A stretch of DNA of 64,000 nucleotides from Eledone cirrhosa (taxonomy: Eukaryota), in contig OZ024756.1 in NCBI GenBank assembly GCA_964016885.1, positions 37,262,001-37,326,000 on the forward strand, read 5' to 3'. Positions 2,651-61,175 of the stretch are shown piece by piece. The position numbers were made by a program, and so were the translations under genes. The notes beneath the pieces were generated by a model. That model saw only the letters and a program-made list of their open reading frames with translations. It did no database searches and was not told the origin of the DNA. The stretch's first letter is position 1, and each line of letters begins with the position of its first letter.

Positions 2651-2686
2651 TCTTAACGTTTCGGACACCAGTCCTTCATCAGAGTT
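2651..2686 (-). ncRNA. Minimal hammerhead ribozyme motif (stem I degenerate)
   Basis: Minus strand reads CTGATGA-aGGAC-tggt-GTCC-GAAAC-GTT. Stem I pairing is poor in this copy. Confidence 0.6.
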
Positions 2687-2812
2687 CGAAATAGACGATA
2701 CATAGAAAGTAAAAAGAGATGAGAGGAAGGAATGGGGAAAACAAGGGAAAAAATTGAGGTGAAAAATCCACACGTGCTTATTCAGTCGACCATCGGAGGA
2801 AATGAAGATATT

Positions 2813-2855
2813 AATCTTGCTAGTTTCAACCTTCATTGGCGTCTCATCAGAGATC
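2813..2855 (-). ncRNA. Degenerate hammerhead ribozyme motif
   Basis: Minus strand gATCT-CTGATGA-gacgccaatgaaggtt-GAAA-ctag-CA-AGATt. Stem I ATCT/AGAT is intact; U16.1 appears mutated to C. Confidence 0.45.
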
Positions 2856-3047
2856 GGTTAAATATTCACTTTCGTTTGTTTTTAAATTGGATGTTTACTA
2901 AGAAATACGTATAATTGAAAGGTTTGCTTTACATTTCAAATGATCCTCCACGAGTGCTGTGTAGAGACTTTGTTGTATCGTCGTGTTCTTTTACTGGTTT
3001 TAGTAATTGGTTTGCGACCATGCTGGTAAATAGATAGATGGATAGAT

Positions 3048-3252
3048 ATGTTTCTTTATTTGCCACAGGGGCGCACAAAAATGGGACATTACAAGACGTG
3101 ACGGCGGGGGTTTTACATATATTCTTTAACAATGATAAATAACAATAAACTATATAAACATAAAACAAATGAAATCCCCATTAGGTGGGTGGGGGGTAAC
3201 GCTACTGCGGGGTTGTTTTACACCCCGGGGATAGAACAGCCCTCAACACCAG
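3048..3252 (-). mobile_element. Tx1/L1-like retrotransposon 3' end within a (GATA)n tract
   Basis: Minus strand ends ...CCCCTGTGGCAAATAAAGAAACAT(ATCT)n with AATAAA. Homologous to 51192-51360; GATA repeats on both flanks. Confidence 0.55.
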
Positions 3253-3606
3253 GATAGATAGATAATTAGATAGACAGATAGATAGATAGGTAGATAGGTA
3301 AGTAGATAGATAAATAGATAGATAGGTAGGTAGCTAGATAGATAGATAGATAGATAATAGATAGATAGATAGATAGATAGATAGGTAGGTTGTTGGGGGG
3401 TAGGTAGGTAGATGGATAGATAGATAGATAGAGATAGAGAGAGAGAGAGAGAGAGGGGAGAGAGAGAGAGAGAGAGAGAGAGAGACAGAGAGAGAGAGAG
3501 AGAGAGAGAGAGAGAGAGAGAGAGAGTATAAAACCAGACACAGAGAAACAGATGGTTTTTCTTCTGACTTTACAATTAACCCATTTCTTACAATATATGT
3601 ATTTCT

Positions 3607-4315
3607 TACTGCTGCTGCTGCTGCTGTTGTTGTTGTTGTTGTTGTTGTTGTTGTTGTTGTTGTTGTTGTTGTTGTTGTTGTTACTGTTGTTGTTATTGTT
3701 GTTATTGCTGCTGTTGCTGTTATTGCTGCTGTTATTACTGTTATTACTGTTGCTGTTATTGTTGCTGTTATTTTTGCTGTTATTATGTTGTTGTTATTTT
3801 TGCTGTTATTACTGTTGCTGTTATTGTTGCTGTTATTGTTGTTGTTATTACTGTTGCTGTTATTGTTGCTGTTATTTTTGCTGTTATTACTGTTGCTGTT
3901 ATTGTTGCTGTTATTGTTGCTGTTATTACTGTTGCTGTTATTGTTGCTGTTATTGTTGCTGTTATTACTGTTGCTGTTATTGTTGCTGTTATTTTTGCTG
4001 TTATTTTTGCTGTTATTGTTGCTGTTATTGTTGTTGTTATTGTTGCTGTTATTTTTGCTGTTATTGTTGTTGTTATTACTGTTATTACTGTTGCTGTTAT
4101 TGCTGTTATTATTGTTGTTGTTATTGCTGCTGTTATTGCTGCTGTTATTGTTGTTGTTATTGTTGCTGTTATTGTTGCTGTTATTGTTGTTGTTATTGTT
4201 GCTGTTATTGTTGCTGTTATTGTTGTTGTTATTACTGTTATTACTGTTGCTGTTATTGCTGTTATTATTGTTGTTGTTATTGCTGCTGTTATTGCTGCTG
4301 TTATTGTTGTTATTA
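3607..4315. repeat. Compound trinucleotide microsatellite (TGT/TGC/TAT)
   Basis: Direct inspection; explains the poly-Leu/Cys/Tyr pseudo-ORFs. Confidence 0.95.
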
Positions 4316-57190: not shown

Positions 57191-57982
57191 GTCGCAGATC
57201 CCTTGGCAGAAAGAGGTGGGATTTGAACTTAGAACCAAGATATTTGGAACAGATGTCACAGAACATTCTGTCGGATTCTTTAACAATTCCTCTAAGCTAC
57301 CGGCCCAGCTGTAGCAACTTTATTTATCGATCTCAGAAGGATGAAAGGCAAAGTTCAGCTCCTTGAAGGGATTTACACTCGTAGAAAGCTATATGTGTGT
57401 GTGTATATATATTTATATATATCTATATATATATATATATATATATATACATATACATTTATACGTATGTATATATATATATATATATATATATATATAT
57501 ATATATATATATATATATATATATATATAAATATATATGTATGTATATGTATATATATGTATATATATATATATATGTATGCATATGTATATATATGTAT
57601 ATATATGTATATATATATGTATGTATATGTATATATATGTATGTATATATATATATATATACATACATATATATATATATATATACATATACATACATAT
57701 ATATATATATACATATATATATATATGTGTGTGTGTGTGTGTATATGCACACACACACACATATATATATATATATATATATATATATATATATACGTGT
57801 GTGTATATATATACACACATATATATACGTGTGTGTGTATATATATACACACACATATATATATATATACGTGTGTGTGTATATATATACACACATATAT
57901 ATATATATATATATACGTGTGTGGGTATATATATACACACACACGTATATATATATATATGTGTGTGTCTGAATGTTCACAC

Positions 57983-58035
57983 TGACGTAATTAATTTCAG
58001 CATCATCGATGATGATGCTGAAATTAATTACGTCA
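57983..58035. repeat. Perfect 25-bp inverted repeat with 3-nt loop
   Basis: TGACGTAATTAATTTCAGCATCATC-gat-GATGATGCTGAAATTAATTACGTCA. Confidence 0.9.
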
Positions 58036-60303
58036 TCATCATCATCATCGTCATTGTTGTTGTTCACACCTCCCACAACTGTCACCTCCCACCAACACCT
58101 CACTTTGCTTTCTTTCTTCTAATTTATAAAAGCCCCCCCCCCCCCACTCTGCTCCTTTTACCCCAACCTCTCCCCACCCCCCAACAACTCTGCTCCTCCT
58201 CCTTCAGTTTTTTCCGTCTCCCCATCTCTCCACCTAACACTCACTCCTACCTCCTCTAAATCTTCCTCGTCTTTGTGTCTATACACACACTGCTAACTTC
58301 ATCACACACACACACACATACGCACACTGCTAACTTCATCACACACACACACACACACACACACACTGCTAACTTCATCACACACATACGCACACACACA
58401 CATATATATATATATATATATATATAGACGGAGACGCGTATATACGCACCCATTCAAACAAACACTCATATATATGTGTGTGTGTGTGTGTGTCTGTCTG
58501 TCTATGTGTGTGTATTCATATCATACATACATATAATTACACACATACCGATGCTCACCCCTTCATCTCTCTCTCTCTCTCTCTCTCTCTCTCTCTCTCT
58601 CTCTCTCTCTCTCTCTTCCTCTCTCTCTCTCACTCTCACTCTCTCTCTTTCTTTACATATATATATATTCTATTATATATATATATATCATCTCTGGCTA
58701 TCTAAAAGTATCTTTCTGCTTTTCTCTTCACCCAACTCCCATATCTGTCTCCTAGTCCCTTAATGGCGCCCCCCCCCCCTCTCTCTCTCTCTCTCTCTCT
58801 CTCTATCTATCTATCTATCTATCTATTTATCTATCTATCTCTGATTAGCCAACATGGCAAGGTGCCTGGCACACGTACCTACCCCGTCCCCTGCACTCTA
58901 CCCCCACCGCGCCCGTCCCATGTCCCTCCAAAAGCCAGCACAGTCACTGCTTTAAATCTTCTCCTCTTCCCCACCGCCACACTCTGCCGTCATTCATATC
59001 TTCCACCACCGCCGCCACCACTACCACCACCACCACCGCCACCGCCACCGCCACCACCACCGTCCACCATATTTTCTTCTACAGATGATATGAGTTTTAT
59101 CAAAGTCACAGATGTAGTATTACTTGTATTGAATGCGCTCACCACCACCACCAACATCATCACCACCACCACCACCACCCCCACTACCACAACCACCAGC
59201 ATCACCTCTACCACCACCACCACTACTACCACCACCACTACCATCTTACATAAAACACACATCAGGTGAATCAACTGATGTGGTGGTGGTGGTGTGGTGG
59301 TGGCGGTGATGTTGTTGTTGGTGGTGGTGGTGGTAGAGGTGATGTTGTTGTTGGTGGTGGTGGTGGTAGAGGTGATGTTGGTGGTGGTGGTGGTGGTGGT
59401 GGTGGTGGTAGAGGTGATGTTGGTGGTGGTGGTGGTGTATAGTGGTGATGATAATAAAAATAGTTATGATGATAATGATGATAATGATGGTGGTGGTGGT
59501 GGTGGTGGTGGTCGTCGTGGTGGTGGTGGTGGTGATGGTGATGGTGATGGTGATGGTGGTGGTGATGGTGATGGTGGTGATGGTGGTGATGATGGTGATG
59601 GTGGTGATGCTGATGGTGGTGATGGTGGTGATGGTGGTGATGGTGATGGTGGTGATGGTGGTGATGGTGATGGTGGTGATGGTGGTGATGGTGGTGATGG
59701 TGATGGTGGTGATGGTGATGGTGGTGATGGTGGTGATGGTGGTGATGGTGATGGTGGTGATGGTGGTGATGGTGATGGTGATGGTGATGGTGATGGTGGT
59801 GGTGATGGTGATGGTGGTGATGGTGGTGATGGTGGTGACGTGATGGTGATGGTGGTGGTGATGGTGATGGTGGTGGTGGTGATGGTGGTGATGGTGGTGA
59901 TGGTGGTGGTGGTGATGGCGACAAGTCAACATCTCAGGCACAATGGAAAATTACTACATGGTGGATGTATGTTTGATGGAGGTGTTGCTGGTGGCGGGGG
60001 AGTGGCTTAGTAGGTGATTGTGTGTACGTGAGTGTGTGTGTGTACGTGAGTGTGTGTGTGTGTGTACGTGAGTGTGTGTGTGTGTACGTGAGTGTGTGTG
60101 TGCGTGTCTGTGTGTGTGTGTGTACGTGAGTGTGTGTGTGTGTACCTGTGTGTTAGTATAGTGTAGGTGAATGTGGAGTTCTATGTGTGGTGGTGTTGTT
60201 GGTGAGGGGTGCAATATTTGACCGTAAGATCTTTCAACCCTGGTGTATATATGTGTGTATGTATGAATGTGTGTGTATATATATATATATATATATATAT
60301 ATA

Positions 60304-60421
60304 TAACGAAGGAAATGTGGTAAGGAACCAGATGGACCATAACGCACCAAAGTACTCAATACTTAGGGTAGTAGAGTGGGTAATAGGAACGAGTAGGACC
60401 CCGGGGTCCTACTCGTTCCTA
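60304..60421 (-). mobile_element. Family A copy with loop-less palindromic turn
   Basis: TAGGAACGAGTAGGACCCC|GGGGTCCTACTCGTTCCTA plus full tail. Confidence 0.85.
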
Positions 60422-61137
60422 TATATATATATATTAGCATTGGAGCACCAATACTAATATATATATACATATATACACACACACACATATATATATATAT
60501 ATATATATATATATATATATATATATATATATATATATATATATATATATATATATATATATATATATACATATATATATACATATATACATATATACAT
60601 ATTTATATATATATATAGAGAGAGAGAGAGAGCGGGGGGGGGGATGACAGAGATATGTATAATAGGGGTAGGTGGTGGTTTACAGAGATAGAGGAGATGG
60701 TGGGTGCTTTCGTTTTATTCTTTATTTATTTATCATTTTTACTTTACAAAAATCTTTAGGTGGGGTTTCACATTCTTTCATACCTTGTCTCTCTCTCTCT
60801 CTCTCTCTCTCTCTCTCTCTCTCTCTCTCTCTCTCTCTCTCTCTCCTCTCTCTCACTCTCTCACAGCTTTCTCTATTTCTTTCTCCCCCCCCCCCCCTCT
60901 CTATCTCTCTCCCTCTCTCTCTCTCTCTATATATATATATATATACAATCTTTTCTTTCGTTCTCTCTCAAATTTCCTCTGGGTTTTCCTTTCTTGCCTT
61001 TTACTTAAATATTTTAGATACTTTTCTCCTCATTTCCTTCCTGCCTCAATGTAAAGAAAATAATATATATATATATATATATATATATATATATATATAT
61101 ATATATAAGTGGTTACACAACAGTTAATTCACCATAT

Positions 61138-61175
61138 CGAGAACAATTGTTTCACCTTAACGGATCCTCAGCTCG
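61138..61175 (-). ncRNA. Minimal hammerhead ribozyme motif in a TA-flanked element (61107-61287)
   Basis: Minus strand CGAG-CTGAGGA-t-CC-gttaa-GG-t-GAA-ACAATTGT-T-CTCG. Confidence 0.7.

Follow-up and report, generated by a model that had tools for sequence, protein, structure and literature searches.

Hammerhead motifs in the window and their genomic density

The window analysed was a stretch of 64,000 nucleotides of the Eledone cirrhosa genome (contig OZ024756.1, positions 37,262,001 to 37,326,000), of which 51% was simple repeat; the genome measures 3.0 Gb. A sequence-only reading had listed nine minimal hammerhead ribozyme motifs here, from at least five unrelated families with a different helix III palindrome in each. 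All nine strings were found in the window at the coordinates it gave, with the palindromes it described. The features at these places were as follows, PLE standing for Penelope-like element and ORF for open reading frame.

6829-6864, minus strand: family A, minimal type I hammerhead with ACGT as helix III and U at the H of NUH, within a repeat truncated at its 5' end (descriptor match)
2651-2686, minus strand: decayed family A copy with broken stem I, recognised by likeness to 6829
2813-2855, minus strand: doubtful motif, core words kept, U16.1 replaced, single copy (genome search)
33987-34025, minus strand: family B hammerhead AGTACT, putative 3' end of a Neptune-type PLE (1,435 candidates, upstream frames)
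40886-40945, plus strand: family C hammerhead ATGATCAT, cut short at stem I (254 candidates)
41393-41752: family D head-to-head inversion ATATATAT, with hammerheads at 41440-41500 (minus) and 41645-41705 (plus)
54920-54984, minus strand: family D relative ATATGTAT, antisense within a Scratch-like gene (sequence likeness, second descriptor)
61138-61175, minus strand: family E hammerhead ACAATTGT, fused with a segment (61186-61278) from the interior of its own PLE frame

The check proposed with the list, a descriptor scan against dinucleotide-shuffled sequence, came out in favour of the motifs. A first descriptor that did not demand a helix III palindrome gave 6 matches, whereas 300 dinucleotide shuffles, confined to the segments of the window outside repeats, averaged 0.24 (maximum 2); helix III was self-complementary in 5 of the 6, with 0.01 expected. 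A second descriptor, under which stem II could open with a U-U pair, gave 8 matches (7 of the 9 listed sites and a further one at 9226-9268) against a mean of 0.015 in 200 shuffles of the window. The core CUGANGA (or UUGANAA), GAAA and UH had the type I order and was accompanied by helices I and II at the same 7 listed sites, at 9226 and at 45258, while 2651 and 2813 failed the minimal type I descriptors. A Rfam scan of the window showed no hammerhead among the 150 of 420 matches listed; nearly all of these were microsatellites matched to microRNA families, every one under the gathering score.

The nine sites were not independent. The motifs at 41440 and 41645 were two arms of one inversion (98.6% identity over 144 nt), and that at 54920 was 72-79% related to them and carried a helix III with G-U pairing. 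The motif at 2651, which had no stem I, was 87% identical to 6829 over 79 nt. At 2813, U16.1 was replaced by C and a genome search returned the site alone (1 candidate), so that its assignment as a hammerhead is doubtful; a sixth family at this place was unsupported, given the C, the failure of both descriptors and the single copy. The nine sites reduce to five families and one doubtful site. Beside the family D inversion, a partial relative of the same family without the CUGANGA half was present at 41130-41195.

Besides the listed sites, the window held two further intact motifs, eight motif halves and, in truncated form, three copies of a non-coding tandem repeat. The motifs and half-motifs were as follows.

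9226-9268, minus strand: family H minimal hammerhead, AGAACT, one central mismatch (both descriptor scans)
45258-45299, minus strand: family M minimal hammerhead, U3-A8 core variant, ACCGGT (U3-A8 core scan)
277-450: family K 3' halves with GAAA, a long helix III with palindromic loop, and a GUC site
17923-18122, 33551-33610, 55436-55651 and 61357-61549: further family K 3' halves (U3-A8 core scan)

Family H had 8 relatives in 790 kb of spot samples taken across the genome. Families M and K came from the U3-A8 core scan, which was run without shuffle control; family M had six relatives in four other loci. All 8 family K fragments in the window were without the U3-A8 core half, complete copies were found in loci L103 and L151, and the scan showed that each fragment represents the 3' half of a type I motif with a long stem. 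By eye, about 10 of 22 truncated family K arms started within a few bases of one site in the stem II loop, far from the predicted cut, which suggests a fixed RNA 5' end or a stop of reverse transcription. Six matches in the spot samples had an odd-length helix III (ACCACTGGT type) in which a small monomer hairpin is possible, and represented a further family.

The spot samples comprised 79 stretches of 10 kb on 25 contigs and contained 62 motifs, 39 of them strict, against 0.55 and 0, respectively, in 20 shuffles. This corresponds to 78 motifs per Mb (bootstrap 51-116) or, with arrays and inversions collapsed, to 41 insertions at 52 per Mb (37-70) in 31 of the 79 stretches. Scaled from these 790 kb of hand-picked samples, the total was estimated at about 150,000-235,000 type I motifs per 3 Gb. 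The dense seeding claimed for the window was thus borne out, although it is not local: at the genome rate, at least 8 matches would occur with P=0.14 and at least 7 clusters with P=0.05, and local enrichment was rejected. Published counts of minimal motifs, in the available text of Cervera and de la Pena (2014, PMC4209133), are about 2,000 and 1,300 in Schistosoma mansoni, 4,000 in the coelacanth and 9,000 in Xenopus tropicalis; that of Cervera and de la Pena (2020, PMC7229834) gives more than 6,000 motifs in a coral and 126,247 in the axolotl. The present estimate exceeds these counts, the comparison being rough as the descriptors differ.

Penelope-like element 3' ends and the helix III palindromes

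Family copy numbers are first-look candidates genome-wide, of which 40 per family were scored. In family B (1,435 candidates) the sequence upstream on the same strand encoded the C-terminus of a reverse transcriptase (RT), a CX4CxxC linker and a GIY-YIG domain, which scored 23.9 bits and, just under the cut-off of 22.6, 22.3 bits on PF01541. Locus L121 held the RT C-terminus and GIY-YIG in 349 aa, and the RT was broken in L060; by these motifs the element would be a Neptune-like PLE. Family D (1,130 candidates, best at 98-100%) had a CxCX5C linker and a GIY-YIG-like frame about 1.3 kb upstream in L008 and L031, with the motifs CxCX5C, YIG, CxxC and CxH. Family E gave 1,948 candidates with a query that included ORF sequence besides the 3' end; it had an N-terminal frame with RWR and DKT, and its window copy was an ORF fragment fused to the 3' end. 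The motifs of families D and E fit the description of the Hydra clade in the available text of Craig et al. (2021, PMC8557442), and family D is a putative Hydra-clade-like PLE 3' end; the clade assignments were made from motifs alone, with no tree and no full-length element behind them. Family C (254 candidates) showed two 3' ends running into (TA)n, inverted copies and, at one locus, a Hydra-like endonuclease tail upstream. In family A (1,162 candidates; 40 scored at 94-100%) no upstream ORF was found in 20 loci.

Copies in the fetched loci had a common 3' end in short and tailed forms that reached into (TA)n, were truncated at the 5' end and frequently carried an inverted 5' copy. The 5' truncation, inverted 5' copy, 3' tail extension and microsatellite target are those of PLE anatomy, and PLE ends were often inserted into (TA)n left by other PLE ends. 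Location at a PLE 3' end was backed for families B, D and E by frames that longer copies carried upstream, on the strand of the hammerhead, and for A, C, H, M and K by insertion anatomy only.

The type I motifs of the window are the known minimal hammerhead of PLEs, as had been proposed from the sequence. They share with those of PMC4209133, in its accessible part, the type I order, a short helix I, a palindromic helix III, an additional nucleotide ahead of stem II and the U3-A8 core variant; in both cases a genome holds many families, most copies are solitary and truncated, and pairs on opposite strands lie 100-700 bp apart. The present genome differs in its far higher estimate, a helix III of up to 8 nt and an H17 that is rarely C. 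Like the Hydra- and Neptune-clade PLEs in the available text of PMC8557442, the elements here have a C-terminal GIY-YIG, a CxCX5C or CX2-5CxxC linker, DKT, (TA)n targeting, tail extension, 5' inversions and canonical hammerheads.

Without the palindrome rule, 64 matches in the 790 kb had 39 perfect palindromes in helix III, 8 with G-U pairs, 10 with one mismatch and 7 other words. Perfect and G-U palindromes together made up 47 of the 64, in 15 distinct words, copies of the same family not being independent. No monomer hairpin was predicted for the nine helix III words examined, and eight of them gave a predicted duplex of -1.7 to -10.5 kcal/mol; therefore two copies are predicted to be necessary. 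Cleavage as dimers in place found no footing, since the window contained no two intact motifs of the same family on one strand (41440 and 41645 lie on opposite strands).

Elsewhere in the genome, tandem copies were present. Locus L190 had 12 copies of a 467-nt unit and L155 had 3 copies of a 472-nt unit, head-to-tail; the 467-472 nt units of L190, L155 and L175 were non-coding and retrozyme-like, with a minimal hammerhead ACTAGT in each. Non-coding head-to-tail units with one hammerhead each, as described for non-LTR retrozymes in the accessible text of PMC7229834, were likewise found in L190, L155 and L108, and not at the nine window motifs. The units here measured 467-496 nt and about 630-790 nt and carried minimal or rewired motifs, in which they differ from those retrozymes. 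Non-LTR retrozymes have been proposed as non-autonomous derivatives of PLEs (Li, Clavereau, Pollet 2026, 10.64898/2026.07.22.740005), in a work whose species set, in the part available, has no mollusc.

Very probably, then, the window hammerheads are 3' ends of PLEs and their non-coding derivatives, lying as short 5'-truncated copies in (TA)n, with most lone copies likely inert because two copies are predicted to be needed for a palindromic helix III. Reverse transcription would begin at an endonuclease nick 45-190 nt downstream of the motif and mostly end early, so that no part of an element would be copied more often than its hammerhead region; about a dozen families would together give 50-80 motifs per Mb, and lone copies would be inert by-products of early termination. 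Going by published work, two motifs in transcripts with tandem or terminal repeats would pair through helix III, cut slowly and free a unit-length RNA, which may be circularised and then give rise to head-to-tail arrays by reverse transcription. In this genome, the setting for such paired cleavage would be the 467- and 472-nt arrays.

Several results weigh against this account. Families A, H, M and K were tied to no ORF in the fetched loci and family C to a fragment only; no full-length two-repeat element was found there for any family, and Pfam gave no match for the D-type endonuclease frame. The family H duplex was unstable (+1.4 kcal/mol). H17 was A or U in 38 of 39 strict matches and several families had a U-U first pair in stem II, because of which activity may be low; in the available text of PMC4209133 the monomer was inactive and dimers were weakly active. 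The second descriptor was tuned on the window, and the positions of the genome sample were hand-picked.

Predicted rewired hammerheads of families G and J

Two places in the window carried remnants of a repeat in which GAAA stood upstream of CUGANGA.

54699-54832: family G1 inversion with two arms, each a truncated copy of the repeat with the rewired hammerhead (sequence likeness); the minus-strand arm begins at 54760, the first base past the predicted cut site
10226-10302, minus strand: family G2 copy, truncated to the blocks with GAAA and CUGANGA

These window copies are broken and cannot fold. Genome-wide, a G1 33-mer had 898 exact matches, and the repeat consisted of non-coding 494-496 nt head-to-tail units; a 35-mer pattern of G2 had 3,752 exact matches (control 0). 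An intact G motif reads, 5' to 3', as leader strand, hairpin, 5' strand of helix II, outer helix strand, 3' strand of helix III with UH, stem I strand, 4-nt linker, 3' strand of helix II, GAAA, helix III strand, outer helix strand, stem I strand, CUGANGA, and a tail strand that pairs with the leader.

The fold was aligned over 19 variants, 3 truncated ones of 22 being omitted; it was derived from the same 19 sequences, which favours it. A total of 92.7% of cells were paired, and both partners had changed in 18 of 33 pairs (0 of 500 shuffles; no slid control above 4). Covariation was strong in the hairpin, outer helix and stem I, with 5 such pairs each, and weak in helix II, helix III and the leader-tail helix, with 1 each. 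GAAA and CUGANGA were conserved in 19/19 and UH in 18/19. Stem I was paired at 99% and stem III at 94%. Pairing reached 88% between the strand that precedes GAAA and its upstream partner, and 92% between the 5' leader and the strand following A9. In 18/19, the loop past helix III had tandem G-A pairs and a 3-nt bulge, and so was kink-turn-like. Family J (1,032 candidates), unrelated to G in sequence, formed all six helices with different letters, and both its helix II upstream pairing and its leader-tail pairing were perfect. A third sequence-unrelated family was represented by a fragment on the minus strand near 9421 of L192 (G000:C10:17700001-17710000) with the order cut site, GAAA, CUGANGA and its upstream strands missing. 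A rewired descriptor, written after family G had been seen, gave 7 matches in 790 kb against 0.1 in shuffled sequence, or about 25,000 motifs per genome with a wide error. The rewired form, of which the window holds remnants only, thus has a well-supported fold and is a predicted ribozyme. Type II, twister and pistol were rejected for family G, as the strand order, compared by eye with their consensus, did not fit.

A survey of 148 distinct G copies for their 5' ends gave 24 with an upstream match shorter than 60 nt, and indel artefacts accounted for about 9 of these. Four ends lay within 16-21 nt of GAAA (predicted site 16) and three at 9; of the four, one had been fetched for its likeness to the window and two were explained by TA microhomology. 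Inverted G arms in L162 and L205 began, by eye, at the predicted site.

Families G and J resemble the type-SGC motif in the available text of Eckert et al. (2023, PMC10085705) in the block order cut site, GAAA, CUGANGA, in all core letters and in the short linker from stem I to stem II. They differ in that the partner of the pre-GAAA strand lies upstream of the cut-site block, the helix II strand does not directly follow CUGANGA, and a 5' leader, next to an additional hairpin, pairs with the bases that follow CUGANGA; G further has the kink-turn-like loop. In the part of that paper available, CUGANGA and the stem II strand are assumed contiguous, non-circular forms come almost only from metatranscriptomes, and no SGC RNA derives from the genome of a known organism.

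The Naiad PLEs of PMC8557442 share with G the (TA)n targeting and the tandem and inverted copies. One repeat flank resembled the published Naiads of octopus. The accessible text reports no canonical hammerhead in Naiads, from which it argues that the motifs may merely parasitise PLEs, and the supplement labels Naiad_Ovul and Naiad_Esco as HHR_half_core. Within its consensus file, 90 places with four core words were covered (60 of 62 for CTGATGA; places 4-13 for the three others). Nine printed places parse, by eye and with no computed control, into the G wiring, including the 3' ends of Naiad_Obim and Naiad_Ovul and three coral-like ends, while five places near nematode Naiad records read by eye as ordinary type I. 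No autonomous Naiad (N-terminal GIY-YIG, C-terminal RT) carrying a G or J motif was found in the fetched loci, and the published octopus Naiad motif had no match in the present genome. On these by-eye parses of published consensus ends, G and J are probably linked to Naiads. Both carry a predicted monomeric hammerhead whose blocks stand in a non-circular order, and this is probably the form that the device takes in the Naiad clade.

We lean, with moderate confidence in the whole, towards a joint reading in which this genome, with about 150,000-235,000 motifs of type I, would exceed every published hammerhead load that was found, and would also hold about 25,000 active four-strand rewired hammerheads. 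The order of the rewired form would be non-circular, with a two-helix insertion as the link from A9 to helix II and a kink-turn folding helix III back. In that case the rewired motif would supply the ribozyme that many Naiad retroelements, from corals to octopus, have so far seemed to lack, and animal chromosomes would have yielded their first non-circularly permuted ribozyme. The literature searches gave no description of cephalopod hammerheads, which the supplement of PMC7229834 may contain, or of the rewired form, to whose novelty the supplements of PMC10085705 and 10.64898/2026.07.22.740005 may be relevant; the word 'ribozyme' is absent from PMC13282606, an octopus repeat annotation.

Taken alone, the nine motifs add members to a kind already known and tell no more than how heavy the seeding of the genome by PLEs has been; the rewired family carries the novelty and matters more. 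If the rewired motif at Naiad ends cleaves, it would overturn both the contiguity assumption of Eckert et al. and the parasitism argument of Craig et al., and a monomeric ribozyme would be at hand to test the role of hammerheads in PLE transposition. Dimer-dependent cleavage and family specificity could be tried on the numerous families whose palindromes are compensated.

The Scratch-like gene, alternative explanations and other features

One gene was recognised in part of the window.

47662-47782, plus strand: first exon of a SNAG-domain gene, Scratch-like (zinc fingers)

Its family name, which we take to be Scratch-like, comes from the zinc fingers. A five-finger exon was found on the plus strand at about 7,770-8200 of L034, some 7.8 kb past the end of the window, so that the gene spans about 24 kb. 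The motifs at 54920 and 61138 do lie inside this gene, as had been claimed for its first intron; an effect on the gene did not follow, both being on the minus strand. No intact plus-strand motif was present in the window after 47783. Motifs in the intron cannot cut the pre-mRNA because they are antisense, and such cleavage was rejected.

A role in host-level RNA processing would have dense intronic and intergenic hammerheads, as in the Scratch-like intron, pair in trans and cut nascent transcripts. Partners in trans are indeed plentiful at very high copy number, with many copies 94-100% identical, but both motifs in the Scratch-like gene are antisense, the window is no denser than the genome, all motifs lie in repeat copies with ordinary truncation and decay, and the helix III duplexes are weak; this role is highly improbable. 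Chance matches in AT-rich, microsatellite-laden DNA have practically no probability as an overall explanation: the excess over shuffled sequence in the window (8 against 0.015) and in the spot samples (62 against 0.55), and the recurrence of families with the same fold, refute a chance origin for eight of the nine sites, chance being likely for 2813-2855 alone.

The fold might also be kept for a non-catalytic job, as a signal for RNA dimerisation or binding of a PLE protein, with cutting marginal. The near-constant A or U at H17, the often imperfect stem II and the low in vitro activity in the available text of PMC4209133 agree with this, as do the 124 of 148 family G copies that reach more than 60 nt upstream, insertions thus regularly crossing the cut site uncut. 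Such read-through is equally expected from circular or multimeric templates, however, and the core letters are invariant in unrelated families, including the compensated U3-A8 form. Such a non-catalytic job is considered unlikely.

Other repeats were abundant. A repeat resembling a short interspersed nuclear element occurred at 4387-4892, 10023-10150, 13894-14078, 18785-18957 and 21347-21716, with further copies at 33112-33459, 53008-53193, 61592-61705 and 62419-62605; one copy was a 500-nt inversion. A 4.5 kb satellite at 24824-29309 contained about 560 copies of an 8-nt unit with 90% matches, and a 214-nt inverted repeat was present at 49891-50104. Outside the window, L090 held a short-period satellite with CTGATGA in most units (more than 150 occurrences) and without the hammerhead fold.

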